Notes: generated from the sequence alone by a model not told the origin. 64,000 nt of DNA from Oscillospiraceae bacterium (GCA_015065335.1 SVQM01000001.1:4-64003), one strand, 5' to 3'; positions 41,345-58,146 are shown, counted from the first letter of the stretch. Made by a program: numbers and translations.

Positions 41345-41391
41345 CATATCATAGGTGGCCGCCTGTATTTAGTATGAAAGGATTTGAACAA

Positions 41392-42153: not shown

Positions 42154-42303
42154 ATTATATAGTGAAATCCGAGATTCAATCTAGGATACCACTAAACACT
42201 ATTGACATACCATTCCCAAAAATGGACACACCCATATACCAATATTTAAAAGGTATGGATAGGTAAATGTAAGAATAGGCTTGTAATTAGTGACTTTCGT
42301 AAA

Positions 42304-42383
42304 AAGAAACCGGACACCACTTCGATACGCATTGTATCAAAATTGGTGTCCGGTTTTGGTTGCGGGGGTGGGATTTGAAAGTC
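42304..42383. repeat. Direct repeat copy 2, carrying an extra tRNA-3'-end-like insert
   Basis: Same hairpin as 41113-41162, then TGGTTGCGGGGGTGGGATTTGAA, then the shared TTGAAAGT. Confidence 0.7.
42357..42379 (-). other. tRNA 3'-end-like fragment (T-loop, T-stem, acceptor, CCA); possible att or pseudo-tRNA remnant
   Basis: Minus strand reads TTCAAAT-CCCAC-CCCCGCA-A-CCA. No matching 5' acceptor TGCGGGG or cloverleaf upstream, only a weak D-arm-like GCCGAGTGTACCGAGGC at 42410-42429. Confidence 0.35.
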
Positions 42384-42974
42384 CCTTCCTGAAATATGGT
42401 CGAAATCTTCGCCTCGGTACACTCGGCTCTATTTCTCCCTATTTCAGTTATTCGCTTCGCAAAAACGATTCACCGGATCGTTTTTTGCTCGCTCGCCCAC
42501 GACCTCCGGGTTATGAGCTGTTCCGGGAGTACCCGGGATGCCCAGTAAATACTGGATAAAACGGGTTCGGGTATGCAAAAACCGACCAAAAAACCGACCA
42601 AGGAATCCGGGTATACCAAGACTAATTTTACCGGTTCCGATGATCCTGTGGAGATGTTGTCGGCTTCCTTGAAACTTGTCACGAGAGTGGATTTTGATTT
42701 GGTTTTGGGCAGTGTAATTTTAGTTTTAGAGTTGGCTTTCCAGCGGTTATGTGAAATTCGAAAAAGCCAAACCGACGGATCGACGAAAGAGCCGACGAGA
42801 TGGGGTAGGAGGATTTTGGTTAGATGTATACATATTGCGGAAAGTGACAGATATTATCGAATAATTGATCTGAGATAAATTTGGATCTTTGATGAATTGT
42901 GTTCGAATATAAGGTATTTGTATCGAAACAACATCAACTTTTTGCGAAAGTTTACCAAAAGATACTGTTTAATG

Positions 42975-43003
42975 TTGTAATTACTGTGATACTGTGCTAT
43001 AAT
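42975..43003 (+). promoter_or_regulatory. Candidate promoter at the head of the 43-57 kb array
   Basis: TTGTAA-17 nt-TATAAT. Confidence 0.45.
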
Positions 43004-43055
43004 GTATTTGCAAGATAATAATCTTGCGTACATTACTGCCTGTGAAACACAAAAT

Positions 43056-43072
43056 GTCTCTGCAGAAGCGAC
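43056..43072 (+). promoter_or_regulatory. Degenerate copy of the 17-nt palindrome GTCKCY-N5-RGCGAC
   Basis: GTCTCTGCAGAAGCGAC followed by CATAG. Ends 51 nt before the ATG at 43124. Confidence 0.35.
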
Positions 43073-43135
43073 CATAGTCGGTTGTCTTTGTGCTATGATA
43101 AATACAGAATTTCGAAGAAAGGCATGGTTATAATT

Positions 43136-43435
43136 ATGAAACTAAGAATTATAGAAGAATGTTTTGGTATCAATAGAAGAACAGGAGAACGAAGCACCGG
43201 GAAGACGGACGAAAAGTCAGTAGATGCTATTGTGGAAACTGTTATCGAAATGTCTGCCGGCAGACGAAAGTTCCATATAGAAGCTGTGAGTGAAAACAGA
43301 ATTACTGTAACCGTTGTTTATGACAACAATCCTGCGGCGAATAAAACCTATGAAATTGTCAGGGGCGATAGCGTGCTATATAAGCCAATGTCGAGAGACG
43401 GAGGATACAAATACACGCTTTACTGTGAAGATTAA
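43136..43435 (+). CDS. Small-domain protein, copy 1 (MKLRIxE...DGGYKY family), unknown function
   Basis: 99 aa. Paralog of 47049 and 52606, sharing N-terminal MKL[RK]IE, GRRKF[HY]I and C-terminal DGG[YH][KE]Y. An in-frame ATG at 43124 is also possible. Confidence 0.7.
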   Translation: MKLRIIEECFGINRRTGERSTGKTDEKSVDAIVETVIEMSAGRRKFHIEAVSENRITVTVVYDNNPAANKTYEIVRGDSVLYKPMSRDGGYKYTLYCED

Positions 43436-43466
43436 CAAAGCCGTAAGTACCGTAAGGAGGTAAACT

Positions 43467-44126
43467 ATGGGTTATACAGAAATAAGTGTAAAGCGCATCC
43501 TTGAACTGATAAAAGAAATAGAGGAACGTAAAGAGCATCCGAATGCTGCGGCCACCTATAAGGATGTTCCAGCTCTATGTGAGATAGACAGAATCGTAAA
43601 AGAACAGCTGGTTTTGGAAGAACCGTGTGACCGTGATACGCTTATCGACAGCATATTTGCTGTCAGATATCTCGGAACTTCCTATGAAACTATGTGGAGA
43701 ATTGCTTACGCCAATAAATATTATAAATGGCTGTTTGACATTCATTCTGAGCTTTACCGCCGTTTCGGCGAAAAAGACAAGGAACTTGCTGATGACTATT
43801 ATACTGCTCTGAGAGCAAGGAATTATTACGGTAAAGACGAGTGTTCTGACTTAATAGAGTTAGCGAAAGGGCTTATTTCCGACAGTAAACGCCTGAAAAT
43901 CGAAAAAGAGATACTTGAGGACTTCTGTCCGTTGAAGCATGATCCCGTTGAGCTGAGTGACAAGTATCTGGAGGTCATCGACGAAGTGGATCGCCTGATG
44001 GATGTTCCGGAAAACAAAAACGTTCATTCCTTTGTGCGGAATGAACGTTTTCAGGCACTACTTCTGCAGTATGGCATAGAATGGGAACCGATGACTTCAC
44101 TTAATCCCGGTTGGCATTTCGATTGA
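43467..44126 (+). CDS. Hypothetical helical protein
   Basis: 219-aa ORF with RBS AAGGAGG + 7 nt. No recognised motif. Confidence 0.65.
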   Translation: MGYTEISVKRILELIKEIEERKEHPNAAATYKDVPALCEIDRIVKEQLVLEEPCDRDTLIDSIFAVRYLGTSYETMWRIAYANKYYKWLFDIHSELYRRFGEKDKELADDYYTALRARNYYGKDECSDLIELAKGLISDSKRLKIEKEILEDFCPLKHDPVELSDKYLEVIDEVDRLMDVPENKNVHSFVRNERFQALLLQYGIEWEPMTSLNPGWHFD

Positions 44127-44185
44127 TCTGTTGTTAAGGGATATAATTTGAACACAGATAAATATGGAACGGATGGTGGGAAAAC

Positions 44186-44656
44186 GTGACGGAAGAATTG
44201 TTGCAGGCATGTAAGTCGTACATAGAAAACGGCGGTGCGTTGAGTGAAGACAATGTGATACCGCATTTCAAAATGATGGATATCAGCGTAAGCGAAGCGG
44301 ATGCTTATCTGCGGTATAACAGGGATCTTTCCTTTAACGAGCGTCTGTTTCTCCTGATCGACCGAACAGGTCAGAAGGACAGTGATGTATATAAAAAGGC
44401 ACATATCGACAGACGGCTTTTTTCAAAGATTCGTTCCAATAAGAATTACATTCCATGCAAAAAGACGGTGATCGCACTTTGTTTGGCACTGGAGCTTAAC
44501 CGTGAAGATGCAGATGCACTTCTGATTTCTGCGGGATACAGTTTATCCCGTGCAGATGATTATGACCTGGCAATAGCATTTTGCATTGATAAAAAGGTGT
44601 TTGATTTCTTTGATGTTAATGAGGTGATGGTGCACTTCGGATTTGAAGTTTTCTGA
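44186..44656 (+). CDS. HTH-domain protein (XRE-like C-terminal half)
   Basis: GTG start 5 nt after GGTGGG. The segment VYKKAHIDRRLFSKIRSNKNYIPCKKTVIALCLALELNREDADALLISAGYSL resembles an XRE-type HTH. Confidence 0.55.
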   Translation: MTEELLQACKSYIENGGALSEDNVIPHFKMMDISVSEADAYLRYNRDLSFNERLFLLIDRTGQKDSDVYKKAHIDRRLFSKIRSNKNYIPCKKTVIALCLALELNREDADALLISAGYSLSRADDYDLAIAFCIDKKVFDFFDVNEVMVHFGFEVF

Positions 44657-44664
44657 AATGGAAA

Positions 44665-44686
44665 ATGCCGCCCCTAAGGACGGCAT
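44665..44686. terminator. Hairpin between convergent genes (T-run on the minus strand)
   Basis: ATGCCG-N10-CGGCAT. The minus strand continues with TTTTCCATTT. Confidence 0.5.
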
Positions 44687-44690
44687 GGGT

Positions 44691-44912
44691 TTATGAATCA
44701 CTGTCGGTTTTATCAGAATCATCGTCGGATATGTTCTCGAGAGCGTATTCCAAACATTGAATGACGATCTTGTTGACCGATGTGTTGTATTTCCCGGCGA
44801 GCATTTCCAGCTTCTCAACAATGGGAACGGGAATACGAAACGTTTTGTTTACTGATTCAAAGCCTTTTTCAAATTCTAACACTGTCTTGTACATGCCTTT
44901 CTTTGTGTGCAT
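44691..44912 (-). CDS. Small ribbon-helix-helix-like protein (Arc/CopG-like), the only minus-strand gene inside the array
   Basis: FRIPVPIVEKLEMLAGKYNTSVNKIVIQCLEYAL fits a beta-strand plus two-helix RHH pattern. The start is ambiguous (ATG 44912, ATG 44894 or GTG 44882). Confidence 0.5.
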   Translation of the reverse strand: MHTKKGMYKTVLEFEKGFESVNKTFRIPVPIVEKLEMLAGKYNTSVNKIVIQCLEYALENISDDDSDKTDSDS

Positions 44913-44999
44913 TTAGTTTCATACATTATTATGCACGAAAAAGAGGCAAAAATATACAATTAAATTGCATTTAACTATTCTTGCAAAAGCATTGCAAAT

Positions 45000-45016
45000 G
45001 TCGCCGTAACGGCGAC
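45000..45016 (+). promoter_or_regulatory. 17-nt palindrome GTCGCC-GTAAC-GGCGAC
   Basis: Perfect 6-bp arms, followed by CACAAG. Ends 51 nt before the ATG at 45068. TATGAG/GATAAT -10-like hexamers start 17 nt downstream. Confidence 0.5.
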
Positions 45017-45067
45017 CACAAGATATAAAAAATATGAGATAATAATTACGCTGAAGGAGGCGATATT

Positions 45068-45298
45068 ATGAGTAAATCTAAAAAAATGAGAAGATTGATT
45101 AAGTCGGCTAAAATGGGTAAGCCTTATGCCATGTATGAACTTGGTATCTGTTACCAGCTCGGTCGTGAACGTGTGCAGGATATGAATGAGGCTGCAGGGT
45201 GGATCGGCTGTGCCGCAGTAGCAGGGTATGCTCCCGCAATCGAGTGGATGAAGGATTACGGCTTTGACGACGATGCCATGGTTCAGGCAGAGTCTTAA
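45068..45298 (+). CDS. Single Sel1-like repeat protein
   Basis: GKPYAMYELGICYQLGRERVQDMNEAAGWIGCAAVAGYAPA matches the Sel1 consensus. RBS GAAGGAGG. Confidence 0.65.
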   Translation: MSKSKKMRRLIKSAKMGKPYAMYELGICYQLGRERVQDMNEAAGWIGCAAVAGYAPAIEWMKDYGFDDDAMVQAES

Positions 45299-45312
45299 GG
45301 AGGAGTATTTTA

Positions 45313-45594
45313 ATGATCAAAATAACATGTCCGTATTGCGGCGGCAGATGCGAAACTACCGGTGGACCTGACGGGAATCCCTTTAATAAAGACCGCACGG
45401 AAAAGACCGTGTGTACTGCTTGCGGGCGTACTGTATCGGAGGCAGAGCCTTTGCAGATTCCTGCAGATGTTCTTGAAGAATTACTGACTGATGTCGATAT
45501 AATCGAAATAGATACGGACGGTGATGACGTACCTGATACGGAAGATGTCAACATGAGCATTTCCGATATTGTAAATCCTCCGAAAGTAGATTGA
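45313..45594 (+). CDS. Zinc-ribbon protein with an acidic tail
   Basis: CPYCGG...CTACG ribbon, then a D/E-rich C-terminus. RBS GGAGGAG. Confidence 0.6.
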   Translation: MIKITCPYCGGRCETTGGPDGNPFNKDRTEKTVCTACGRTVSEAEPLQIPADVLEELLTDVDIIEIDTDGDDVPDTEDVNMSISDIVNPPKVD

Positions 45595-45611
45595 AATTGA
45601 AGGAGTATGTT

Positions 45612-47018
45612 ATGGCAGACAACATGAAATGCTTGAAAGCTACAGACGGAACTGTTGCCGATAAAACTGCAATAAATGTCGGTGAGAGTACATACTCATC
45701 GCAGGCAGCTAATAAAGAAGAAATAAAAGAAGGATATCTCTGTCGGCTCAGATGGCGTGTTATGCGTCAGTGTGACGGCGAGAGCGAAATGCAGTGCATA
45801 CCCTTTGATGAGTTGATTTTTAAGAATGGCAAATGTATAGGAATATATCATGCAGACATCATTATGCTGTTCGATGATGAAAATACTCACCAGCATAAAA
45901 AATGGGTTGGTGAAGTTGTTACAGGTCATGATCAAGGATATGATGTGTATGAAACTTATTCCCTGATAAGAATCAAGCGAATAGTCAATACGGATGGTGC
46001 TGACGAAGCGCAAGAGGCTTATGACAGAGCCGAAAAACTATATAATGACGGAAAGTACGAGGATAGCATTGAATGGTATGAAAAAGCCGCACTGCTCGGC
46101 CATGAGGCCGCAATAAATGCTCTTGGATTCTGCTATCTTTACGGAGTTGGTGTGGCTGAAGATATGGATATAGCTGCCGAGCTTTTCAGACAGGCTTTGG
46201 CACATGGTAATATGAAGGCTGCCGGAAATTTAAGCAGAATGCAGTGCTTATACGGATATAAGATGAAGGAATCAGAGGCATTCCGTGTGGCAAAGCTCGG
46301 AGCTGAGACTGGAAACATCTATGCTTTTGTACCACTTGCTTATTGCTATTATTATGGTACAGGATGTGCCAAAAATGAGAAACTTGCCGCATATTGGGCA
46401 TGCAGAAGCTACGAGCACAGAGAAGATTTACCCGAAGCATATAAGCTAATGGCATTCTTATACAGAGAAGGGTGTTTCTTCCCGAAGGTGACTTCCATGG
46501 CGAAATACTGCTACCTGAAACTCACAGAAATGGGTGCTGATTTTTCGGGAATCCTGGATACACCTGAATTTAAGACAGTGAGTCCCGTGGAGCCGATCAT
46601 TCCCGAATTTGATGACAAGTCTCCTGATTTCTTCACACAGGAGTGTCCCCGTGACCTGTATACCGAAGCTTTGCATTACCTCGGCTACAGAGACGGATAC
46701 ACTCCCATTGATGCAAAGAAAGCTGAGGAATTTCTGACAAAAGCGGCAGAACAGGGATATACAAAAGCGCAGTATTCACTTGGAATCAGATACGTCGATT
46801 CCATGGAGCGAAGTGAAGTCAGATATTATCCCGACGGATCTATATCTGCATTTCCTTGTAACAATGAGCTTGGATGTGATCTAATCCGTAAAGCGGCAGA
46901 ATGCGGTGATTATGACGCTATAGGGGCAATGTCGACACTGTGTTTTGACGACGTGGGGATCGATATGTATGAGTATGAACATTACGAAGAACTGAAAAAG
47001 AAGTTTTTCGGGAAATAA
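45612..47018 (+). CDS. Sel1-repeat protein with an unknown N-terminal domain
   Basis: Start set at MADNMK (AAGGAG RBS). Repeats such as WYEKAALLGHEAAINALGFCYLYGVGVAEDMDIAAELFRQALAHGN. Confidence 0.7.
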   Translation: MADNMKCLKATDGTVADKTAINVGESTYSSQAANKEEIKEGYLCRLRWRVMRQCDGESEMQCIPFDELIFKNGKCIGIYHADIIMLFDDENTHQHKKWVGEVVTGHDQGYDVYETYSLIRIKRIVNTDGADEAQEAYDRAEKLYNDGKYEDSIEWYEKAALLGHEAAINALGFCYLYGVGVAEDMDIAAELFRQALAHGNMKAAGNLSRMQCLYGYKMKESEAFRVAKLGAETGNIYAFVPLAYCYYYGTGCAKNEKLAAYWACRSYEHREDLPEAYKLMAFLYREGCFFPKVTSMAKYCYLKLTEMGADFSGILDTPEFKTVSPVEPIIPEFDDKSPDFFTQECPRDLYTEALHYLGYRDGYTPIDAKKAEEFLTKAAEQGYTKAQYSLGIRYVDSMERSEVRYYPDGSISAFPCNNELGCDLIRKAAECGDYDAIGAMSTLCFDDVGIDMYEYEHYEELKKKFFGK

Positions 47019-47048
47019 GCATTTACATAGAAATACGGAGGACTAAAA

Positions 47049-47348
47049 ATGAAACTTAGAATAGAAGAAATATTTTGGGGAATCAATCACCGTGAAGGTA
47101 GATTTAGTGAAAAGGTAACTGCAGATGAGGTTTTCCCTTGTGAGGTAGGAGCCGTACCGGAGTTCGGTAACGGAAGAAGAAAGTTCTATATTGACAAGGT
47201 AACGGAAAAGACCATCGTTCTCTCCGTTCATTACGAAAACAATCCTTCTGCAGACGAAGAATGGCGGCTCAGGATCGGCTGCAAAAAGGAATATGCACCT
47301 ATCTCATTTGACGGCGGATACAAGTACCGTTTTTATGTAACCGAGTGA
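47049..47348 (+). CDS. Small-domain protein, copy 2
   Basis: 99 aa. MKLRIEEIFWGINHREG...GRRKFYIDKVTEKTIVLSVHYENNP...DGGYKYRFY. RBS GGAGG + 8 nt. Confidence 0.75.
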   Translation: MKLRIEEIFWGINHREGRFSEKVTADEVFPCEVGAVPEFGNGRRKFYIDKVTEKTIVLSVHYENNPSADEEWRLRIGCKKEYAPISFDGGYKYRFYVTE

Positions 47349-47368
47349 TTTGACGGAGGGTATTTACA

Positions 47369-47599
47369 GTGAATGACGTATATTCCGTAGTGCTTGAAAG
47401 TGTAGGAACACGACCGCTTCTGACCATGAAATTTATTATGGAAATAACGGGGATCGGCCTCGGCGATGCCAAAAATATGGTGGATGAAGTACCGTCAATC
47501 GTGGCAACAGAAATGGACATTGATGAAGCATGCGAACTTCGGGATGGTCTGGAATATATCGGGAACGTGGTGACTATCCCGGAGCTTGAAATGTGGTGA
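47369..47599 (+). CDS. Stand-alone ribosomal L7/L12 C-terminal-domain-like protein
   Basis: VVLESVGTRPLLTMKFIMEITGIGLGDAKNMVDEVPSIVATEMDIDEACELRDGLEYIG aligns with the L12 CTD (...[27 protein letters not shown]...). GTG start after GGAGGG. Confidence 0.65.
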   Translation: MNDVYSVVLESVGTRPLLTMKFIMEITGIGLGDAKNMVDEVPSIVATEMDIDEACELRDGLEYIGNVVTIPELEMW

Positions 47600-47627
47600 A
47601 TACTAAAAAATCAGGAGAGATGTTTAC

Positions 47628-48221
47628 ATGGAACAGACCATTGAATATAAAAACGGAATATATACGGGTGAATTAAAAAACGGATTTCCCCACGGCGTGG
47701 GACATTACTCCCATATATCGACGCATGATTACGACGGACTTGAGTGTAAATTTGTTTGTCACAAAAGAGGAATATGGGTAGATGATATTCTTTCCGGTGT
47801 GGTGTGGGAATACCTCCACGAGGATGATACTCGTGAGAAAACCACTGAGAGCTGTGTATTTCAGGATGAATACGGTCTGGTCTTGCTTGGTATCGACAGA
47901 GATGGTAAGCTTATCGGAACTCTTGCAGAAACTCTCACAGAGCTTGAAGTATCATATGATCGTGGAATGATTTGTAGGCAAAGCAACCGAAGCTGGGGCA
48001 AGGTTATCCGTGACGGTCATACATTCATCGGTCAGTTTTCCTCCGAAAAGGAACTCCCTTATTATGCAGATGATTATGTTCCTCACGGATTTTGCATTGA
48101 AATGGAAGGCGAAAAGTTGGTTTATTGCGGAATGTTCGATATGGGTGAGAGAAAAGGTGCGGGTGTGATCCCGTCAGCTGATCCCGATGTTCCTTTTACT
48201 ATGAGTTTTCAGGTTATCTGA
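47628..48221 (+). CDS. MORN-like repeat protein
   Basis: YKNGIYTGELKNGFPHGVGHY matches the MORN consensus (YxGxxxxGxxHGxG). RBS AGGAGAG. Confidence 0.55.
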   Translation: MEQTIEYKNGIYTGELKNGFPHGVGHYSHISTHDYDGLECKFVCHKRGIWVDDILSGVVWEYLHEDDTREKTTESCVFQDEYGLVLLGIDRDGKLIGTLAETLTELEVSYDRGMICRQSNRSWGKVIRDGHTFIGQFSSEKELPYYADDYVPHGFCIEMEGEKLVYCGMFDMGERKGAGVIPSADPDVPFTMSFQVI

Positions 48222-48253
48222 AACAGATACGAGATAAGTAAAAGTATGATTTT

Positions 48254-48270
48254 GTCGCCCCGACGGCGAC
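48254..48270 (+). promoter_or_regulatory. 17-nt palindrome GTCGCC-CCGAC-GGCGAC
   Basis: Perfect 6-bp arms, followed by CATAAA. Ends 50 nt before the ATG at 48321. TATGTT/TACAAT hexamers start 17 nt downstream. Confidence 0.5.
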
Positions 48271-48320
48271 CATAAAAGCGAGCAGTTATGTTACAATAAG
48301 CTCGTAAAGGAGGATGGCAT

Positions 48321-49949
48321 ATGAGACCTCAGACCGTATTGAAAATTGATCCTGTAGGAAAGAGTGCTGATGAGATATACGCTGTGAGAGATCAGTGGAT
48401 ATCGGCGTATGAAAAGTACATAGAGGAAAATCCCGATAAAGAGGATCTTGGAGAATTGCTCATCCGTCGTGTTACCCGCGCAGCAGATATGCTTGTGGAA
48501 CGTTATGTGGAAGTACCGCTTGATGAGCAAAACAAAAAGGATCCCGACAGCGACTTTGACTTTGATAATTACAACCCCGAATACAAAGATGCAAACGCAT
48601 CCCTTGACGGAGATTTCCCCCTCGGTGATGCCTATGATGCGGATTTTATAACCCCTTATTTTACTATCGAAAATCTTGTCCGGATCCAGTTTGGAGAAAC
48701 TCATTCCGTTCCCACGGGCCACTTTGTTGAGCCTGCATACGATGTACTCATAAGAAAAGGCTTTATTTACGAGCTTATGGGAGACCTTGCACAGGCAGAG
48801 GCATGCTACCGCGGAGGCGGTATGTCGGAGAGTGTTCGTAGACGTGAGTTTGAATGTCGCCGTAAAAAGGACGTCGAAGGAGAGATGGCATACGCCACGG
48901 CACAGCATCATATGGAAAGCGGCGAATGGAGCAAGGTGTACGATCATCTTCAGAAAGCCGTTGATATGGAAAATATCGATGCAATGGTGGATATGGGCCT
49001 TAGTCTCATCTATGGAACCTTTGGTATTCCCACAAGCTATGATGAAGGTCTGGAACTTCTTCGCAAAGCGGCAATGTACGGTAATATGAGAGCATGTGTG
49101 GAGATCGTGGAGCTGTACGATAGCGGGTCTTCAGCTATAGACGGTGAAGAAGCTGAAAAGTATTGCAAAAAGGCAGCAGAAGCCGGTGACAAGAGTGCTG
49201 CTGTTCGCCTGGAGGACGGCTTTGATACCCGTCCCCTTATAGAAATTCTTGAAGAACAGGCACAGAAAGGCAGTGTTGATGCACTGTGGTATTTGTCACG
49301 TGAATACAGCCGTATAGGTGATGATGAGAAATCTGTCGAGTATTTGATCCGTGCGACAGATGCAGACCAGATCGATGCACTTCTTTATATGGCTGATATG
49401 CATCTGGACAGTGATGCATATCAGGCAGAAGAATATTTCCGCCGTGCCGCAGAAAAGGGAAGCGAAAAAGCAATAATCGCTCTCGGTACCCTTGCACTAA
49501 AGGATACAGAGATACCCTTTTGGATTCAGGCAACAGGTTCACAGGAGACTTCTGATGTAATCCGTGAACAGCATAAAACGCAGTTTGCGTGGTATCTGCT
49601 TGCGGCAGAGGGTGGTCTGACGGAGGCAATGACAAAAGTTTCCGTCGCTTACCATTACGGTTATCCCTGCGATAAGAATGACGATGCGGCGTTTTTGTGG
49701 GCATCACGTGCAGCAGATAACGGAGATGCAACTGCGATGTATCAGATCGGCTATTTTTATGAGAATGCCTGCGGATGTGATAAGGATATGAATGCTGCTG
49801 CTTTGTTCTATACACAGGCGGCAGAAGCAGGAATATTTGAAGCGATGATGCGCCTTGTCGAGATCTACGGATGTGGCAAGGACGGTATAGAGAAAGACGC
49901 GGCAAAGGCAAACCGCTACCGCTTTATGTCGGGAATCGGCCGGGACTGA
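48321..49949 (+). CDS. Shared N-module (about 190 aa) fused to Sel1 repeats
   Basis: N-module motifs DQWISAY, SLDGDFPLG and IRKGFIYEL are paralogous to 50735. The C-terminal half has classical Sel1 repeats (e.g. AMYQIGYFYENACGCDKDMNAAALFYTQAAEAG). Confidence 0.75.
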   Translation: MRPQTVLKIDPVGKSADEIYAVRDQWISAYEKYIEENPDKEDLGELLIRRVTRAADMLVERYVEVPLDEQNKKDPDSDFDFDNYNPEYKDANASLDGDFPLGDAYDADFITPYFTIENLVRIQFGETHSVPTGHFVEPAYDVLIRKGFIYELMGDLAQAEACYRGGGMSESVRRREFECRRKKDVEGEMAYATAQHHMESGEWSKVYDHLQKAVDMENIDAMVDMGLSLIYGTFGIPTSYDEGLELLRKAAMYGNMRACVEIVELYDSGSSAIDGEEAEKYCKKAAEAGDKSAAVRLEDGFDTRPLIEILEEQAQKGSVDALWYLSREYSRIGDDEKSVEYLIRATDADQIDALLYMADMHLDSDAYQAEEYFRRAAEKGSEKAIIALGTLALKDTEIPFWIQATGSQETSDVIREQHKTQFAWYLLAAEGGLTEAMTKVSVAYHYGYPCDKNDDAAFLWASRAADNGDATAMYQIGYFYENACGCDKDMNAAALFYTQAAEAGIFEAMMRLVEIYGCGKDGIEKDAAKANRYRFMSGIGRD

Positions 49950-49977
49950 AAAATAAAACAAATAGCAGGGAGACGTT

Positions 49978-50709
49978 ATGATGAGATATCTGACATCCGA
50001 TGAGGTTCGTGAACTTGATAAATTTTTAATTGATGGTAACGATGAGGCAGTCGGCATTGAAATACACATCGGTAAGGAGTGGCGTACAGGTTATTCCGAG
50101 CCGGATACAATTCAGAAATTTACTCTGAGTGAGCTTGAAGGCAAAGAGCCGATTGAAATCGGACGAGTGAAAGTATGTGCTTTGGCAGGCGATCAGCTGT
50201 ATTGCATAGAAAAGGGTAAATATTCCGACGAGGTTCATTCCACGGGAACGGAATATGCTTACCGTGGTGTTTCTCCTGACACGGGTGACTATATGTATGT
50301 GAGAGTAATGGTTACATATTGTTGTCCCATTGTAACTTTACCGGTTGAGGAGATATTGTCCCTTGATACTTTCATCGTAAAGGGCAACAATCGTGTAGTC
50401 GGTGTGAGATTTGAGCCGGGTTCTTCGGGCGTTGGCGGATCGAATTCTTCGGGATTTTCTGCATACGGGGGAAAAGAGTACGAGTATACAGTTGAGGAAC
50501 TTGGAACAAAGAAACCTTTCCGTGTAGAGGAAGACGTGCTGTGTGCCCTGGTGAATGACGTGCTGTATTTAAGATACAGAAATCGTGACGGAGATATGCG
50601 TGTGTATACACTTGATTACAGAAAAAGATCACTTGTCACGAGCGGTGATGGGATTGCTTACGATACTGTTTCAGCAACACGAATTACGCTTATATTGAAG
50701 GATCGGTAA
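49978..50709 (+). CDS. Hypothetical protein made of two tandem copies of an unknown domain
   Basis: ELDKFLIDGNDEAVGIEIHIG...FTLSELEGKEPIEIGRVKVCALAGDQLY versus SLDTFIVKGNNRVVGVRFEPG...YTVEELGTKKPFRVEEDVLCALVNDVLY. Confidence 0.65.
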   Translation: MMRYLTSDEVRELDKFLIDGNDEAVGIEIHIGKEWRTGYSEPDTIQKFTLSELEGKEPIEIGRVKVCALAGDQLYCIEKGKYSDEVHSTGTEYAYRGVSPDTGDYMYVRVMVTYCCPIVTLPVEEILSLDTFIVKGNNRVVGVRFEPGSSGVGGSNSSGFSAYGGKEYEYTVEELGTKKPFRVEEDVLCALVNDVLYLRYRNRDGDMRVYTLDYRKRSLVTSGDGIAYDTVSATRITLILKDR

Positions 50710-50734
50710 TACCCTGAATTAAGGAGGACGCTGT

Positions 50735-51760
50735 ATGAAACCCGAAATTGCACTTGCGGGAAGATTTCCTTATGAGTATAAAGAAATTGAAGTATTGTAT
50801 GATCAGTGGCTTGAAGCGTATGGATCTATCTCAAATGAGTATCCGTCCGTGAAGGAGTTTGCGGAGAAACTGACCGAACGTATAAAGTTTGCATATAAGC
50901 TATTCCTGGAGAGGGACTGTCCAAACTCACGGAAGGTAAGCAATTTTTGCGGAGACGATTCCTATATGGAGGAACTCAGTCGCGTGAGAAAAGAAGAGGA
51001 CGATTCCTTTGATGGCGATTTTCCTCTCGGTAATGAGAAGGATATGTCGTTTGCAAAACGCTTTTTTTCCGTACGTGAACTTGCCTTGATCCAACTTGGT
51101 TTGGCACATACTATTGATCTTGAAAAAGCAGCGAGGAATGTTCCTGCAGATCACATTCGCAAAGGATTTCTTATCGAACTTCAAGGACTTTGGCATGAAG
51201 CTGCGAGAGCGTACAAAAAAGGACGACAGTTCCGTTCAGGCGAGGTGTATGACAGAGAGCAGGAATGCTTCGCAAAGGCAAAAGCGGAACGAGGAAGATG
51301 CCCGAAGTGCGGTAGTACCGATACATTGAATACGGGCAGCGGAGAAGTGAATCCCGAGACGGGAGATATTTCACTTGATACCTGCACTGAAACATGGCAG
51401 TGCAATTCCTGCGGTGAGACGTTCACAACGGAGGCAGATGTTTACTACAATCTTGTAATAAACTGGCGATACAAATACGATAAAGAAGGTCGTACAAACA
51501 ATGAGGATGGTGAGGATTTTTACAATCTTGAGGAAGGTGCGACCTATTCTCTGCCGTATATGAGTGATCGTAAACTTGAGATTCGCTGGGTTAAAGTAGA
51601 TGGCGACACCATTACTGCAGAAGTATGTGCGGGATATGATACGGTTATCGTGTCAAATAAAGGAGAAGATGTTTCCGCATATGCATCAAGCGAATATTCT
51701 GTGTGCGGTGACTGTGTGCATGAGAGTATATCAATGGCACTTACGATAAAAAAGGACTGA
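50735..51760 (+). CDS. Shared N-module, then zinc ribbon, then C-terminal small domain
   Basis: DQWLEAY, SFDGDFPLG and IRKGFLIEL (as in 48321). Ribbon CPKCGS...CNSCGE. The C-terminus WRYKYDKEG...EEGATYSLPYM...LEIRWVKVDGD is paralogous to the 56254 C-terminus. Confidence 0.75.
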   Translation: MKPEIALAGRFPYEYKEIEVLYDQWLEAYGSISNEYPSVKEFAEKLTERIKFAYKLFLERDCPNSRKVSNFCGDDSYMEELSRVRKEEDDSFDGDFPLGNEKDMSFAKRFFSVRELALIQLGLAHTIDLEKAARNVPADHIRKGFLIELQGLWHEAARAYKKGRQFRSGEVYDREQECFAKAKAERGRCPKCGSTDTLNTGSGEVNPETGDISLDTCTETWQCNSCGETFTTEADVYYNLVINWRYKYDKEGRTNNEDGEDFYNLEEGATYSLPYMSDRKLEIRWVKVDGDTITAEVCAGYDTVIVSNKGEDVSAYASSEYSVCGDCVHESISMALTIKKD

Positions 51761-51773
51761 AGGGGATAGATGT

Positions 51774-52409
51774 ATGGATATTATTTGGGCAGTAAGAGAG
51801 CTTTGCCGTGGAGACGGTGGCTTTGAGAATATGTTTGACAGAGAAAAAAGTAGTGGAAAGCTTGCCGGACTTACAGGAGACAGCCGTGATGCAGAGCTTT
51901 TTGAAACACTTATCTATGGTGAGGCAAGAAGCACGCTTATCGATATGATCTGCGACGCATATAACTACAATACCTTTGAAAACACTATACATGCAAAGCT
52001 TATGTCTGACGGACTTGACTTTACCGATGCAAAGAGAGCACTTGAGATATTCTATACTGCATTCGGTTTCCCGGAATACAGAGATACGGACAAGTCACGT
52101 ATAGCTATTCTTCTTGACGGAGATGAAAAATTCAGCACAGAGTATGTCGGTGAGGCAATTGACGGCAAAGAACACGGCGTCGGTGTAAGAACCTGCTATT
52201 ACAACGGCAAGTGGTGCAGCCACGATGAGTGTGTCTGGATCAATGGTGAGATGACAGGCTTTGACAATGCCAAAGAGATGGAATTTGAAGTATTTGAGGA
52301 TCGTAAGATGGGATTTGTTGTCAATAACAATTTCGTCGGAAGATTCAAGTGTATATTTAGTGACGGCACAGAGAGCTACGAGCCCGGAGTGAAACTTAAT
52401 ATACGATAA
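51774..52409 (+). CDS. Hypothetical protein with a MORN-like C-terminal half
   Basis: YVGEAIDGKEHGVGVRTCYYNGKW...WINGEMTG. Confidence 0.55.
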   Translation: MDIIWAVRELCRGDGGFENMFDREKSSGKLAGLTGDSRDAELFETLIYGEARSTLIDMICDAYNYNTFENTIHAKLMSDGLDFTDAKRALEIFYTAFGFPEYRDTDKSRIAILLDGDEKFSTEYVGEAIDGKEHGVGVRTCYYNGKWCSHDECVWINGEMTGFDNAKEMEFEVFEDRKMGFVVNNNFVGRFKCIFSDGTESYEPGVKLNIR

Positions 52410-52429
52410 TATAGGTGGAGGATATAAGT

Positions 52430-52609
52430 ATGGAGAAAAACGAGAAGATCGTATGTCCCAAATGCGGCAGCGAAAACGTAAAATGTATGGATGGTGCAGG
52501 AGCTGTTTCAAAATACGGCAAGGACGTAATGATCGATATTGCACCTGATATGTGGATTTGCGAAGATTGCAAGGAGAGCTTTCGTATAACAGAGGGGGAA
52601 TCCTTATGA
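52430..52609 (+). CDS. Small zinc-ribbon protein
   Basis: CPKCGS...CEDC. Start set at MEKNEK (GGTGGAGG RBS). ATGA overlap with the next gene. Confidence 0.6.
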   Translation: MEKNEKIVCPKCGSENVKCMDGAGAVSKYGKDVMIDIAPDMWICEDCKESFRITEGESL

Positions 52610-52890
52610 AGCTGAAGATCGAAGATTACTTCTGGGCGGTAGGCAAAAGAACAAAAAAAGTGAAAACGGTGCGTGTTCCTCTCAAAGTCGGTGAGATCAA
52701 GGCACTTGACAACACATGTACCTGGCAGATCCACGAGGTAGGTGAGGATGAAGTTAAAATCTGTGTTATCCGTCACGACGGTGAAACTATCAAAACCTTC
52801 ACTGTTACAAAAGACAAAGATGAATATTGGCGTCCCCGTTCAATGGACGGTGGACATGAGTATACACTGAAGCTGGTTCGCTTCTTTTAG
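52606..52890 (+). CDS. Small-domain protein, copy 3
   Basis: 94 aa. MKLKIEDYFWAVGKR...WQIHEVGEDEVKICVIRHD...DGGHEYTL. Translationally coupled to the previous gene (ATGA). Confidence 0.7.
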   Translation: MKLKIEDYFWAVGKRTKKVKTVRVPLKVGEIKALDNTCTWQIHEVGEDEVKICVIRHDGETIKTFTVTKDKDEYWRPRSMDGGHEYTLKLVRFF

Positions 52891-52928
52891 AAAAATAAAA
52901 ATCACCTTTGACAGAAAGAAGGAAAAAT

Positions 52929-53483
52929 ATGAAAAACGCAATTGGAATCAAAGTAGTAAAGTCACCCGAGAGATATGATCTCGGTGCAAGTAAATTTTTC
53001 GGAGATCCCACCGTTCCAAGTGAGTGGGAGAATAAGTTTTATAATACGGAAATGTTCTTCTGTCAGATACGTCTGTCTGATATTGCAGAACTTGACACTG
53101 AAAACATACTTCCTCATACGGGTTATCTCTATGTATTCCTTGATACGGAAAGTTATCCTTATGAGGCACGTGTGCTTTACTATGACGGTGAGCCGGATAT
53201 GGTTCTTGATGACTTTAATGCCGATGTTACCGATGCGGAGCATCTTACTAAAGGATGGCTTATGAATTTTGAGGCGGCAGAGGCGGATGCAGAGGGAATC
53301 AAACTGTTCGGTATGCCTGCAGACTGGCCTTATGGTGATGAACCTCCGAAGCTCCTTATGCAGTATGATCCGCTGGCATCAGGTATGGGGTTCCGTGACA
53401 GTATTGACGGATTTGCCTATCTTGCATTTGCCGAGGGTTCTGACAGCCTGGAGGATATTACATACTTCGAAGAACGAAGCTGA
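52929..53483 (+). CDS. DUF1963 (YwqG-like) domain protein
   Basis: SKFFGDPTVP...MFFCQIRLSDI...LPHTGYLYVFLD...KLFGMP...LLMQYDP pattern. Confidence 0.65.
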   Translation: MKNAIGIKVVKSPERYDLGASKFFGDPTVPSEWENKFYNTEMFFCQIRLSDIAELDTENILPHTGYLYVFLDTESYPYEARVLYYDGEPDMVLDDFNADVTDAEHLTKGWLMNFEAAEADAEGIKLFGMPADWPYGDEPPKLLMQYDPLASGMGFRDSIDGFAYLAFAEGSDSLEDITYFEERS

Positions 53484-53519
53484 TCTGAAAAAACAAACAG
53501 AAATAAAGAGGTAACGAAA

Positions 53520-54413
53520 ATGAATGACAAGAAATTTGTTAAGGTTATAGGTAAACAGGTAGATAAGGACGGATGCGTAGTAGCAGAGGCGACTGCCGTT
53601 GTGCCCTACAAAAAAGAAGGACGCGTAAGTCTTCCCGCCGTTCCTCCCTTTAATACAAACGTATGGCTGGACGGTGACACCGGATACAATATGGCATCTC
53701 TTGGATTTACCGAAAACGATAAGGTTGAATATTTTTGGGGTGATTATTACGATTTTGTCGACGGTAAGGCACATGCAGAGAAAGAGATTAAGGACTATAA
53801 TATGATCTTTGACTTTGAGCTTATCGACCTTGCTAAAAATGCAGATTACGCTATTGCAATGAAGGTAAGAAAGGTCGAGCCCGGTGAGAAGATCGACGAG
53901 AGCTGCAGTAAGTTCTTTGGCAGACCTTGCCTGCCTGAGTCCATGAAAGAGCCGTATCCCGATGACGGTGTATTCTTCGCACAGATCAGATGCGAGGATA
54001 TAAAAGATCTTGATCCCGAGTACAGACTCCCTCACCAGGGCTATCTCTATTTCTTTCTTGATGCCGAGATGTACCCCTCCAATGACCTTTATATGATGGT
54101 GGATCACACCACGGATGAACTGAAGTACGTTATCGACGATTATAACGAGAATTGTAATATCAAAGGTCTGACCGACACCTACGTTATCACCTTTGAAAAG
54201 GTTGATGCGGGATACGAGGGAACCAAACTCCTCGGTTATCCCTCAAACGATGTGGATGACAGTGATGACAGAGCAGGTCTGCTCCTTCAGTACGATCCCC
54301 TGGACTTTGACGTTCCGTTCCTTTCGACTCTTGACGGATATGCATTTGTTTTCTTCGGTGATAATGATGAGGATAAGTTTAGCGGCGTAGATTACGTAGC
54401 TTGGGGTTCATAA
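53520..54413 (+). CDS. DUF1963 (YwqG-like) domain protein with an extra roughly 120-aa N-terminal domain
   Basis: SKFFGRPCLP...VFFAQIRCEDI...LPHQGYLYFFLD...KLLGYP...LLLQYDP, paralogous to 52929. Confidence 0.65.
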   Translation: MNDKKFVKVIGKQVDKDGCVVAEATAVVPYKKEGRVSLPAVPPFNTNVWLDGDTGYNMASLGFTENDKVEYFWGDYYDFVDGKAHAEKEIKDYNMIFDFELIDLAKNADYAIAMKVRKVEPGEKIDESCSKFFGRPCLPESMKEPYPDDGVFFAQIRCEDIKDLDPEYRLPHQGYLYFFLDAEMYPSNDLYMMVDHTTDELKYVIDDYNENCNIKGLTDTYVITFEKVDAGYEGTKLLGYPSNDVDDSDDRAGLLLQYDPLDFDVPFLSTLDGYAFVFFGDNDEDKFSGVDYVAWGS

Positions 54414-54438
54414 TCACAGGCAGAAAGAAAGTTGAATT

Positions 54439-54876
54439 ATGAAGAACGTAAATGATTTTGTAATTGAAGACGGCGTTTTAGAAAAATACCTTGGAGGCGG
54501 CGGAGATGTCGTTATCCCCGACGGGGTGTACGAAATCGGCAGGTCTGTGTTTTATGGTTGCAAGGAACTGACAAGCATCACCATCCCCGATAGTGTTATG
54601 AGAATCAGAGGGTCTGCTTTCCAAGATTGTGAGGGACTTACCGAAATCACTATTCCCGCACGTGTTGAAAACGTTGAAGACTGGGCGTTTCAGGGCTGTA
54701 CGGGCTTGAACGATGTTACCGTTCTCGGCACCAATACGATGATCAGCAAATGGGCATTTTATGAATGTTCACCGGATCTCTGGTTCGATGTGCCGGAAAA
54801 CAGCAGAGCGAGGAAGTTTGCTGACCGCTATGAGGATGACAGGCTTTGGTCGGATGATGATTATAATCCGCATTGA
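54439..54876 (+). CDS. BspA-type leucine-rich-repeat protein
   Basis: Repeats IPDGVYEIGRSVFYGCKELTSITIPDSVMRIRGSAFQDCEGLTEITIPARVENVEDWAFQGCTGL. Confidence 0.7.
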   Translation: MKNVNDFVIEDGVLEKYLGGGGDVVIPDGVYEIGRSVFYGCKELTSITIPDSVMRIRGSAFQDCEGLTEITIPARVENVEDWAFQGCTGLNDVTVLGTNTMISKWAFYECSPDLWFDVPENSRARKFADRYEDDRLWSDDDYNPH

Positions 54877-54896
54877 GAAAGGGCAGTGGATAAAGA

Positions 54897-55787
54897 ATGG
54901 CTATTCATACCTGTCGGCATTGCGGTGCAATTCTTCCGTATGACGACTCCCGTATCTGTCCCAATTGTGCGCGAAAAAGGGAAGCTGAAAAGAGACAGGG
55001 CCCCGACAGTACGGTCAACACTGCAGGCGCAGGTTGCCTTGCAGCACTTGCCGGACCTCTCTTAAAATTTCTGAAAATCTTTGGCGTATTTCTTGTATTC
55101 TGCGCTGTCATATGGGTGATACTCTTCTTTGTTTTCGATACGTATAAAATCGATTATACAGTTGTCGGTGAGTCTACCCGCACAGCGGAAGAGTTTGAAT
55201 CCTTTCTCCTGGATTTTGACAGCAATAGAGACGTTTGGGAAATTCAGTATGAGAAAAAAGGCTCCGGAATTTTCGGACGGTTGTCATCAGGTAGTAATGG
55301 CTCCTATACCATGCGTTACAATAAGGGTGAAACAGCCTCACATACCACCTTCATTTTTGATGGTGAGAATCTCGGCACGGAATTACCTGACGGTACATAC
55401 ATTCTGACAAAGATCGACGGTGCGGACGTGCTGATTGACGAAAATAGCAAGCTCATTTATAAAGCGGACAGTGAGTTTTACACGACCAACGCACCGAAGC
55501 TGCAGGCAATCACCCACGATGCTCTGCTTAGTGAAATTCTGGAGAAGACCGATGGCGGTGAACACGGACTAGTCGAAACCGATCCGCCGATGGAAGCTAT
55601 CTTTACAGAGAAGGCAGCTATAACTGCAAGGCTCGTGCGCAATGATCCGGATGCGCTGATGGATCACGGATTTGAAGCAAGATGTAATATCGGAGATAGT
55701 AATGAGTGGGATGTATACAAGTTTACGTACTACTATCAGAACTCCGTCCGAGATCTGAAAATTGACGGCTATACTTATGCCAAGTAG
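54897..55787 (+). CDS. Zinc-ribbon, single-TM protein with an unknown C-terminal domain
   Basis: CRHCG...CPNC, then TM LKIFGVFLVFCAVIWVILFFVF. The only membrane protein in the array. Confidence 0.6.
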   Translation: MAIHTCRHCGAILPYDDSRICPNCARKREAEKRQGPDSTVNTAGAGCLAALAGPLLKFLKIFGVFLVFCAVIWVILFFVFDTYKIDYTVVGESTRTAEEFESFLLDFDSNRDVWEIQYEKKGSGIFGRLSSGSNGSYTMRYNKGETASHTTFIFDGENLGTELPDGTYILTKIDGADVLIDENSKLIYKADSEFYTTNAPKLQAITHDALLSEILEKTDGGEHGLVETDPPMEAIFTEKAAITARLVRNDPDALMDHGFEARCNIGDSNEWDVYKFTYYYQNSVRDLKIDGYTYAK

Positions 55788-55796
55788 GAGGTACCT

Positions 55797-56216
55797 ATGA
55801 CAGATAACAAACTTAAGCTTTTAAAGCGTTATCAATATGACAGAAGAAAAGAAGATGACGTTAACGAAGAGAGACGCACCTGGACCACTTTAGTAACGGT
55901 ATCAGCACTTTATGTGTATGACTATAACGGAAATTCATATGTCGTAACGGTGCACTGGTATAATAAATACTACAGCGACATGAACGAATATTACAGGTCA
56001 CTTGATCTGACAGTATATCCCATAGGTGACGACGATGCGGACAGCGAGGAAAAAGCGCGCAGAGTTGCAGAGGGTACAGCCGGTTTTAAGATGAATCTTG
56101 GGAACAAATCGTTTTTAGATTCATCTCTGGACACTAGTAGTGAGGAAGATTTTACGGACAGTATTCACAGCTATGTGACCCGTGCAATTGAAGAATATCT
56201 TGCAGACAAAAAGTAA
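55797..56216 (+). CDS. Hypothetical protein
   Basis: 139-aa ORF starting 9 nt after the previous stop, with GGAGG RBS. Confidence 0.55.
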   Translation: MTDNKLKLLKRYQYDRRKEDDVNEERRTWTTLVTVSALYVYDYNGNSYVVTVHWYNKYYSDMNEYYRSLDLTVYPIGDDDADSEEKARRVAEGTAGFKMNLGNKSFLDSSLDTSSEEDFTDSIHSYVTRAIEEYLADKK

Positions 56217-56253
56217 GCGACTATGGCGGAAGAGGTTTGAGGAGGTATAAGTT

Positions 56254-56907
56254 ATGAACACAAAACCTATCATTCACGTTCACTATATGAACGACGACTA
56301 TAAAGGGCGGGAAGGGGCACCTTGCTTTGATAAGTATCTGCAGGTGACTCCGGGGAGGATCTTCGAATCATACGGCGGATTCGATCCGTTTGATGTGCTT
56401 TCTGTTTCTAAAAACAAAATGGTTATGCGACTGGACAACGCAACCCAGACGCTATGCCCCGGTGAAACTATTACTATGCACTATGAGCTTCCCGGTCTGA
56501 TCGCTGACGGCAGCGGATTTGAATATTTCACAGCAACCGTCCGTTGGCTGACGGAAGAGGAAGCGGAACAGGTTACCGCCGAGCCTATGAATGACCGTTA
56601 CTTGGCTATGAAATGGGACTATAAGTACGACAAGGAAAGCACTTGGTTTGACGAGGACAGCGGCGAAGAACAGTATGAACTAAAAGAAGGTGCATCCTAT
56701 ACACTGCCCCACATAAAAGAGGAAAGCCTTGAGATTCGTTCGGTTAAGACTGAAGGTGACCTCGTCCAAGCCGAGATATACGTGGATCACAACACGTATA
56801 CCGTGTGCGAAAACGGAGAGCCTGTAGTCGGCTATGCATACGACGATTATATGGTTGCAGGTGATTTTGTTTCGCAATCGCTTTATATGAAATTTACAAT
56901 CCAATAA
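56254..56907 (+). CDS. Protein made of two small domains (N-half resembles the MKLRIE/DGGYKY family; C-half is paralogous to the 50735 C-terminus)
   Basis: N-half FDVLSVSKNKMVMRLDN...DGSGFEYFTATV versus FHIEAVSENRITVTVVYDNN...DGGYKYTLY. C-half WDYKYDKES...KEGASYTLPHI...LEIRSVKTEGD. Confidence 0.7.
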   Translation: MNTKPIIHVHYMNDDYKGREGAPCFDKYLQVTPGRIFESYGGFDPFDVLSVSKNKMVMRLDNATQTLCPGETITMHYELPGLIADGSGFEYFTATVRWLTEEEAEQVTAEPMNDRYLAMKWDYKYDKESTWFDEDSGEEQYELKEGASYTLPHIKEESLEIRSVKTEGDLVQAEIYVDHNTYTVCENGEPVVGYAYDDYMVAGDFVSQSLYMKFTIQ

Positions 56908-57181: not shown

Positions 57182-58105
57182 TCACTTAATCTTTGCTTTT
57201 ACTTCATCGGCATTATGTTTTGCCATTTCAGCTTCGTTTTCAAGGCCCTCGTTTTTATAAAGATTTACAAGCTCGAGCCATGTATTATAAGACTTCTCGT
57301 ATTCACCCATATAATCGTAGCACCAAGCTTTGTTCCAAAGTCCGGAGTGGCCTTCCACCCCCAGCTTTTCTGCGGTTTCATAGCATTCTATCGCTTCGTT
57401 GTAACGTCCGAAATGATTGTGAGCTGATCCAAGGTGAATATAAAGAACACCACATTCGGGGAATAGCTTAATAGCTTCTTTGGCAGTCGATTCAAGCTCG
57501 TCATAGCAGTCACAATAATACAGGGATTCGCAAAGAGATGCCCATTCCAGAGGATTGTTTTTGTCACGCTTAACTCTATCTTTGAGATAGGGAATTATCT
57601 CATCATAACCGTCCCCGGCTTCACGTTCAATTCGCATCTTAAAATCAAGGGCATTATAATAAGACTGTGGATCTTCTCTGTAATCTCTCGCAATTATTCT
57701 TTCGTACCATTCGCGAGCTTTCCTTCGTGAATCTACGTACATAAGATCGTTAAGAAGAGCATAATTGAACATATCCCGCATGGTCATATTACTGGAGTTT
57801 ATCAGTTTGCGAAACTCGAATTCAGCAGCAAGAAAATCTTCGGGAAGATCGGTCTTTTTATATACCGCGGTAAGACGTTCTGCGTAATTTCTGTATGCTA
57901 CGGAATTTGATTTGTAAAAGTCATCGACAGTAACACAGTACAGTTTTGCGATATCGGGAAGCCTTAAAACATCGGGAAGGGCATTGCCACACTCCCAACG
58001 TGATACAGTCTGAACAGTAACACCAAGAATCTCTGCTACCTGTTCTTGTGTCAGTTTTTTCTGATTACGAAATTTTCTTAAATTTTCGGAAAATATAGTA
58101 GACAT
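57182..58105 (-). CDS. XRE-family HTH regulator with C-terminal TPR repeats
   Basis: Start reset to MSTIFSENLRKFRNQKKLTQEQVAEILGVTVQTVSRWECGN (AAAGGAA RBS). TPR-like helical repeats follow. Confidence 0.8.
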   Translation of the reverse strand: MSTIFSENLRKFRNQKKLTQEQVAEILGVTVQTVSRWECGNALPDVLRLPDIAKLYCVTVDDFYKSNSVAYRNYAERLTAVYKKTDLPEDFLAAEFEFRKLINSSNMTMRDMFNYALLNDLMYVDSRRKAREWYERIIARDYREDPQSYYNALDFKMRIEREAGDGYDEIIPYLKDRVKRDKNNPLEWASLCESLYYCDCYDELESTAKEAIKLFPECGVLYIHLGSAHNHFGRYNEAIECYETAEKLGVEGHSGLWNKAWCYDYMGEYEKSYNTWLELVNLYKNEGLENEAEMAKHNADEVKAKIK

Positions 58106-58146
58106 ATTTTTATTCCTTTCGGTATTTATTAGAAGCTTCTGTCTAT

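Follow-up and report, generated by a model that had tools for sequence, protein, structure and literature searches.

What is the role of a protein domain of about 95 residues that is encoded three times within a single gene array of an Oscillospiraceae bacterium? The array lies at positions 43136-56907 (+) of a 64,000-nucleotide stretch of DNA (GCA_015065335.1, SVQM01000001.1:4-64003), referred to here as the window, and consists of 21 same-strand genes over 14 kb that enclose one small minus-strand open reading frame (ORF). A first-pass annotation, made by a model from the sequence alone, had described the domain as novel and as a possible binding or recognition module. We refer to the domain as S, and to the N- and C-terminal modules of a second array protein, encoded from position 56254, as U-N and U-C. 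Fetched loci are labeled L001-L059, and P numbers denote homologous proteins from the database search. We find that S is a real and hitherto unnamed family from gut Clostridia, whose members are small all-beta proteins of ~95 residues, soluble and cytoplasmic. We tentatively propose that bacterial TYPP (DUF1963/YwqG-type) proteins use it as a detachable module for binding or as an adaptor, without catalytic activity, in a mosaic island that is probably related to conflict.

Three S paralogues under purifying selection

S copy 1 (A-type, 99 amino acids (aa); 43136-43435, +) is encoded by the first gene of the array, which is followed 31 nucleotides (nt) on by the gene of its partner, a B-type protein of 219 aa (43467-44126, +). 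Copy 2 (G-type, 99 aa; 47049-47348, +) lies 20 nt ahead of a gene for a stand-alone 76-aa paralogue of the L7/L12 C-terminal domain, or L12-CTD (47369-47599, +; Pfam Ribosomal_L12, E 1.9e-12). Copy 3 (O-type, 94 aa; 52606-52890, +) precedes a TYPP gene, and its start overlaps the stop of a Zn-ribbon gene (52415-52609) by 4 nt. All three copies are matched over their full length by a family hidden Markov model (HMM) built from 59 homologues, with E-values of 5e-39, 6e-41, and 1e-36, respectively. The pattern of this model is MKL+I...W, a central hairpin, and P-x-S-x-D-G-G-[YH]-x-Y. By BLASTP, copies 1 and 2 are 44% identical (E 1e-23), and both are 25-28% identical to copy 3 (E about 1e-5 to 1e-6).

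The first-pass annotation had placed these three stand-alone copies at exactly the right coordinates, and BLASTP and the family HMM establish them as true paralogues; every motif quoted for them is present. It had counted four to six copies in total, and this number comes down to three clear members and one probable distant member. When the family HMM is run on the six-frame translation of the window, only the three copies are recovered, and the next best match has an E-value of 4.4.

Selection was assessed over the 139 orthologue pairs with 0.05 < dS < 1.5. The dN/dS ratio has a median of 0.19 and a maximum of 0.91. This purifying selection, together with the presence of ribosome-binding sites (RBSs), identifies the S copies as genuine genes. 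The dN/dS comparison had been put forward as a way to detect diversifying selection between copies; among these pairs, the outcome is purifying, with no sign of pervasive diversification. All three S proteins are devoid of hydrophobic segments, and within the array only the product of 54897-55787 has one.

A beta-strand family missing from current databases

S homologues form 114 clusters in a word-seeded search of 5.8 billion proteins, nearly all of them stand-alone proteins of 92-103 aa without a Pfam domain. An exhaustive HMMER search of 1.84 billion representatives returns 139 matches at E 1e-3 or better, which are mostly stand-alone and 91-104 aa long. About 85 of these matches are genuine members, full-length or fragmentary, and the remainder are giant repeat proteins. 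The source names of the members are 'hypothetical protein' throughout (Ruminococcus sp., Acutalibacteraceae, Oscillospiraceae). Scanning one genome per species locates 46 loci, all from Clostridia and almost all from metagenome-assembled genomes, and many of their titles refer to a human-gut catalogue or to a sample from the gut or rectum.

The description of S as a novel, unrecognized family holds across all of the resources searched. Pfam scans of all 59 members yield no model at its cut-off; the best, Cadherin-like, attains 16.6 bits against a cut-off of 24.2 and appears below threshold in 7 of the 59 (E 0.011 or worse). NCBIfam, PADLOC, PHROGs, and a profile search of PDB sequences contain no match to S at threshold. 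S was also considered as a phage or known-defence protein and was rejected as such, PHROGs and PADLOC having given nothing.

AlphaFold2, supplied with the alignment of 59 sequences, predicts an all-beta fold with high confidence (pLDDT 94.3, pTM 0.83). The model has eight strands, comprising a long β1-β2 hairpin, a short β3, and five further strands. Foldseek finds nothing significant for it among 350,542 PDB chains (best E 0.13, TM-score at most 0.41) or in BFVD (best E 0.037, TM-score 0.26). S represents an annotation gap with a confident predicted structure and no solved or viral structural match, and it merits an entry as a domain family. At this level, the finding is solid and unsurprising in kind, and little would be lost by being wrong if S were simply another hypothetical small protein.

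Pairing and fusion of S with TYPP proteins

Genomic partners were counted for non-redundant S domains in the 59 fetched loci and the window. The 97-aa subtype is taxonomically the most widespread. A TYPP gene lies within 150 nt downstream of 18 of its copies, and two more are fused to TYPP, making 20 of the 21 assessable copies; one copy has another neighbor and one ends with its contig. A-type domains have a B gene next in three cases and are fused to TYPP in four. Of the 12 non-redundant G-type copies, six have an L12-CTD protein next, one has TYPP, and five have other genes. For the O-type, TYPP comes next in the window, and a 510-aa protein ending in TYPP comes next in L001-L004, L017, and L047.

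The partner of S copy 3 (52908-53483, +) is a short TYPP/DUF1963 protein that scores 21.7 bits against the Pfam DUF1963 model, just under the 23-bit cut-off. Its listed TTG start is likely wrong, and the true start is likely the ATG at 52929, after AGGAG. The protein is 38% identical (E 6e-34) to the product of 53520-54413 (+), a TYPP/DUF1963 protein that reaches 38.8 bits against the same cut-off and carries an N-module of its own in residues 1-125, unrelated to S, U-N, or U-C. The two-repeat hallmark of TYPP domains, a GGxP-like motif and a conserved Q in each repeat (PMC4275035), is present in the partner proteins. In the TYPP alignment, it takes the form of invariant G25/P27 with Q46 in the first half and G128/P130 with Q145 in the second. 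The 52908-53483 product corresponds to only the C-terminal 185 residues of the 510-522-aa protein in L001-L004, L017, and L047 (e.g. L001 10299-11831), which is a domain-level deletion or acquisition.

Fusion proteins from the exhaustive search extend this picture. S is joined to a DUF1963/TYPP domain in P0128 and to a B-type protein in P0115; the latter is an orthologue of copy 1 and unites S with the protein type that is encoded right after 43136 in the window. Other proteins contain tandem S domains (P0227), MORN repeats followed by S (P0147), a Sel1-like region followed by S (P0223), or U-N followed by S (P0120). The S-TYPP fusions, the U-N-TYPP fusions, and the N-module of 53520 all meet TYPP at the same point, AIGxxxKKA...SKFFGxP, which is also where stand-alone TYPP begins. 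This common junction indicates that S, U-N, and the others are alternative N-terminal modules of TYPP. We also considered S as a split-off piece of TYPP itself, and rejected this option: hhalign gives 0.2%, and the YwqG structure 1PV5 is not among the Foldseek matches of S.

In one lineage (L005-L008, 7075-10851), an S-TYPP pair occurs outside a large array, after genes for an 829-843-aa LRR_5/Flg_new surface-type protein and an 83-aa protein, and adjoins glycoside-hydrolase-like genes. This arrangement indicates that the S-TYPP pair can exist as a minimal unit.

A probable distant relative in a two-module protein

The first-pass annotation had aligned the N-terminal half of the 56254 protein to S, and had suggested that its C-terminus, as well as that of the 50735 protein, might belong to the family too. 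The 56254 protein (217 aa) combines two fused modules, both of which also occur elsewhere as small stand-alone proteins (~116 aa for U-N, ~106 aa for U-C). U-N spans residues 1-111 (56254-56586, +) and U-C residues 112-217 (56587-56907, +). U-N is also fused to TYPP, in P0271 and P0272, besides standing ahead of an S domain in P0120.

The S family HMM does not match U-N. Profile-profile comparison by hhalign gives 34% with small profiles and 87% (P 3.9e-6, score 34.7, 51 columns) with profiles enlarged from the fetched loci, in exactly the register first proposed. Among the controls, the highest score of 60 column-shuffles is 19.0 (mean 11.1), the reversed profile reaches 11.4, and ten further modules of the array, each compared with S, U-N, and U-C (30 comparisons), stay at or below 18.1. 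In a jackhmmer search with U-N, the best out-of-family matches are S members, at E 0.04-0.08. The AlphaFold2 model of the 56254 protein (pLDDT 87) gives U-N the eight-strand pattern of S at nearly the same positions. U-N is a probable distant relative of S; the proposed alignment finds support at the level of profiles and predicted strands, though not at that of the family HMM.

The C-terminal modules fare differently. A U-C-type module forms the C-terminus of the 341-aa 50735 protein (51434-51760, +), and it is 37% identical by BLASTP (E 3e-25) to that of 56254, in agreement with the original view that the two are mutual paralogues. Their membership in the S family is not upheld. By hhalign, U-C against S gives 1% and a score of 14.3, level with the reversed and shuffled controls, and U-C shows no relation to U-N either (1%). 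The only feature in common with S is the prediction of eight strands in an all-beta module. Judged by sequence, U-C is a family separate from S.

Several other modules were rejected as S-like. These are the 53520 N-domain, the two halves of 49978, the 54897 C-part, the N-region of the 510-aa TYPP protein, and 55797, 51774, 47628, 43467, and 45313, all with scores of 18.1 or less and 1% or less.

The S array as a mosaic island

The array encodes S, B, helix-turn-helix (HTH), Sel1, Zn-ribbon, L12-CTD, MORN, J/L-type N-module, TYPP, LRR_5, and U modules. Gaps between its genes are mostly 5-37 nt, with GGAGG-type RBSs before most of them. At the DNA level, the array is a mosaic with blocks of 65-85% identity to L001-L004, L009-L011, L047, and L050, and with gains and losses of both cassettes and domains. 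The closest relatives, L058 and L059, have an identical gene order, and the downstream flanks of L059 differ. Distant species share a conserved unit that runs through a Zn-ribbon, a Zn-ribbon/transmembrane gene, a gene of 171-192 aa, J/L, S, TYPP, in some cases Ser/Thr kinase, VWA, PP2C, and 317-aa genes, and B. In other species, a B-type protein closes this conserved J/L-S-TYPP(-kinase-VWA-PP2C)-B unit. Two serine recombinase genes are located at the edge of the L031 island, and recombinase genes are also found in L003; none occurs within or beside the array in the window.

Upstream of the array, a leader of ~1 kb (42154-43135) contains no convincing gene and has no Rfam match; Rfam families and tRNAs are absent from the entire window. 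The best promoter-like site of the leader (42975-43003, +) reads TTGTAA, 17 nt, and TG-n-TATAAT (extended -10), a consensus match only, and sits ~130 nt upstream of the first S gene in a conserved part of the leader. Over the block 42927-43122, this leader shares 71% identity with those of L009-L011. The array is flanked by two HTH_3 regulators that carry unusual fusions, with HTH joined to a phosphoribosyltransferase upstream (41374-42153, +) and to TPR downstream (57182-58168, -). The near-identical contig L058 also has the HTH-phosphoribosyltransferase gene upstream. GC skew of the plus strand is 0.15-0.23 over 42001-54000 and mostly below 0.13 elsewhere in the window, and GC content in 42001-54000 is slightly lower (0.40-0.46).

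The sole minus-strand ORF of the array (44691-44912, -; 73 aa) is followed by a terminator-like hairpin (44686-44665, -). In related arrays, this position also holds a minus-strand gene of 63-73 aa, and there is no Pfam match to it. By eye, the product looks like a ribbon-helix-helix regulator. The 341-aa 50735-51760 protein (+) is a three-part mosaic of modules that occur separately nearby. Its N-module is common to 48321-49949 (32% identity, E 2e-17) and its Zn-ribbon is akin to that of 52415-52609 (E 5e-7). The 243-aa protein encoded by 49978-50709 (+) contains an internal tandem duplication of a ~120-aa unit, whose halves align at E 1e-7 and belong to no known family; a module related to this unit is fused with the MORN repeats and S domain of P0147. 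In related arrays, the L12 domain sits inside proteins of 267-699 aa. The array L12-CTD paralogue might bind translational GTPases or serve as a decoy for them. Outside the array, a 1007-aa protein with Big_2 and type I dockerin domains (35613-38636, +) suggests a cellulosome-bearing, Ruminococcus-like host, in agreement with the taxonomic labels of related loci.

A possible adaptor role and its alternatives

TYPP domains of the YwqG family have been proposed to be peptide-binding and chaperone-like (PMC4275035). Eukaryotic TYPP proteins, namely Tsr4, PDCD2, and PDCD2L, are described as dedicated chaperones of the ribosomal protein uS5 (PMC7736825). In the mechanism that we consider, S would be a detachable N-terminal partner of DUF1963/YwqG-type TYPP domains, protein-binding and non-catalytic, that interacts with them physically. 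In most lineages the S gene lies immediately upstream of a short TYPP gene, or S is fused to TYPP via a linker of ~7 residues, at the position where other TYPP proteins of the same arrays bear alternative N-terminal modules. Window copy 3 retains the pairing with TYPP, in the form of 52908-53483, and copies 1 and 2 have switched to other partners downstream, the B protein of 219 aa and the L12-CTD paralogue. By analogy with Tsr4/PDCD2, S may recognize or anchor a client protein, with TYPP gripping an extended segment of that client. The setting is a 14-kb single-strand mosaic island of binding-domain cassettes in gut Oscillospirales-type Clostridia, probably of a conflict type (immunity or defence). 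The initial suggestion of a binding or recognition module fits the fusion or pairing of S with TYPP, B, MORN, Sel1-like, S, and U-N modules, and no catalytic-looking motif is found in S, though binding itself is something we infer.

Several observations weigh against this assignment. For two of the window's three copies, and for most of the O-type, the immediate neighbor is not a stand-alone TYPP gene, and the adjacency of S and TYPP could reflect co-regulation only. The match of the array TYPP proteins to the Pfam model is confined to its N-terminal part, and HMMER does not link them to the chain of the solved YwqG structure 1PV5, either by phmmer with 53520-54413 or by hmmsearch with the TYPP profile. 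Additionally, our literature search found no report of a function for bacterial DUF1963/YwqG (TYPP) proteins, and the chaperone analogy is for this reason borrowed from eukaryotes.

Other explanations account for parts of the same evidence. Divergence alone might create the appearance of a new family if S were merely a generic Ig-like or fibronectin-III-like (fn3) beta-sandwich. With giant fn3/Ig-repeat proteins of 1,000-4,400 aa, the family profile does give E-values as low as 1e-14 for the whole protein, the 95-residue repeats of P0159 align across nearly the full S profile, and a few S members have weak Pfam matches to Cadherin-like and Big_13. However, the low whole-protein values arise because many near-identical weak repeats are summed: single fn3/Ig repeats score 2-12 bits, with per-domain E-values far above 1 at database scale, and per-domain inspection ruled out the giant proteins as relatives. 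No Pfam Ig or fn3 model reaches its cut-off in the 59 members, and no Ig or fn3 structure is among the top 50 Foldseek PDB matches of the S model. With neither a per-domain profile match nor a three-dimensional match in hand, we regard this explanation as very improbable. A second proposal concerns the array as a whole, which could be a heterogeneous polyimmunity locus, a class of loci that collect functionally equivalent genes (Zhang et al. 2012, PMC3482391). Each S paralogue would then neutralize a different polymorphic toxin by direct binding, the TYPP, Sel1, LRR, MORN, and L12-CTD proteins would also confer immunity, and the fusions would be polyimmunity proteins. The tight, unidirectional packing of the array genes with no toxin gene interrupting, gene content that differs among lineages, fusion of unrelated modules, soluble cytoplasmic products, and recombinase genes that border related islands (L003, L031) are all consistent with such a locus. 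Yet no known immunity family (SUKH, SuFu, Imm1-74) or toxin domain is detected in the window or the related loci examined, S shows no toxin linkage in 59 loci, DUF1963/YwqG is absent from the 2012 catalogue (PMC3482391), and the low median dN/dS also argues against it. Many species have kept the gene order and particular pairs (J/L-S-TYPP...B), which makes cooperating parts more likely than a collection of equivalent immunity genes, and polyimmunity appears unlikely.

Alternatively, S-TYPP may be the sensor or adaptor arm of a TerY-P-like system of Ser/Thr kinase, VWA, and PP2C proteins, from which the island in the window has lost the triad. TerY-P triads have been proposed to be phosphorylation switches with ties to defence systems, and modules of the TerY-P-like kind protect against phage (PMC11090510). 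In L031, L042, L040, L043, and L048, genes for the kinase, VWA, PP2C, 317-aa, and B proteins follow directly after S-TYPP, as confirmed with Pfam, and L001-L004 and L012-L015 have the same triad a few genes past an S copy. The triad and recombinase genes of L031 lie at 10866-13800 and 17439-19959, and the L001 triad lies at 13191-16533. In opposition to this scheme, the array of the window contains no kinase, VWA, or PP2C gene, and short J/L-S-TYPP-B units without the triad are found in L028, L045, and L051. PADLOC models match the kinase only, generically, leaving VWA, PP2C, S, TYPP, and B unmatched. We consider it an improbable explanation, on a par with polyimmunity.

That S acts as an adaptor for TYPP, the reading we prefer, would have practical value. 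Bacterial DUF1963/YwqG proteins are widespread, and a co-located, sometimes fused S protein provides a concrete, testable pair for finding the targets of TYPP. A bolder version of this reading, which we regard as doubtful, is that S and U-N, and possibly U-C, form a new superfamily of small beta folds that gives target specificity to TYPP. Together with Sel1, MORN, LRR, and L12-CTD cassettes, and often a kinase-VWA-PP2C switch, they would constitute a kind of mosaic island for immunity or defence that has not been described before and is confined to gut Oscillospirales-type Clostridia. If true, this would offer the first functional handle on bacterial YwqG/DUF1963 proteins. A mosaic island of binding-domain cassettes in abundant gut Clostridia may be a new flavor of conflict locus.

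Comparison with known systems

In size (~95 aa) and all-beta content, S resembles Ig, fn3, and cadherin-like domains, with weak sub-threshold profile similarity in its central strands. It differs from them in that no similarity has per-domain significance, no model reaches its cut-off, and the three-dimensional model of S retrieves no Ig or fn3 structure. The island shares with polyimmunity loci (PMC3482391) a tight unidirectional array, small cytoplasmic proteins, a lineage-dependent mosaic of content, fused unrelated modules, and nearby recombinases in related islands. Unlike those loci, it has no known immunity or toxin family, and it displays conserved pairs and orders as well as the kinase-VWA-PP2C triad in related islands. 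That triad is similar in composition to TerY-P (PMC11090510), but its match to PADLOC models is generic and limited to the kinase, and the window is without it.

PMC4275035 places the domain that partners S in one superfamily with Tsr4/PDCD2/PDCD2L, and the idea that TYPP may hold a client derives from this likeness. In contrast to those proteins, which represent another TYPP family and are encoded by housekeeping genes, the bacterial proteins described here belong to a mobile-looking, variable island, S has no eukaryotic counterpart, and a link to uS5 would be an analogy only. The YwqG family provides a further parallel, since its TYPP domains acquire sporadic, variable N-terminal protein-binding fusions and occur in several copies per operon (Burroughs & Aravind 2014, PMC4275035). 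S is absent from the partners listed there (C-type lectin, ankyrin, BRCT, WGR, and transmembrane domains), is mostly encoded by a separate gene, also pairs with the non-TYPP proteins B and L12-CTD, and has no detectable relative among known domains or solved structures. Like those partners, however, S and U-N are located immediately N-terminal to TYPP, in operons that contain several TYPP copies.

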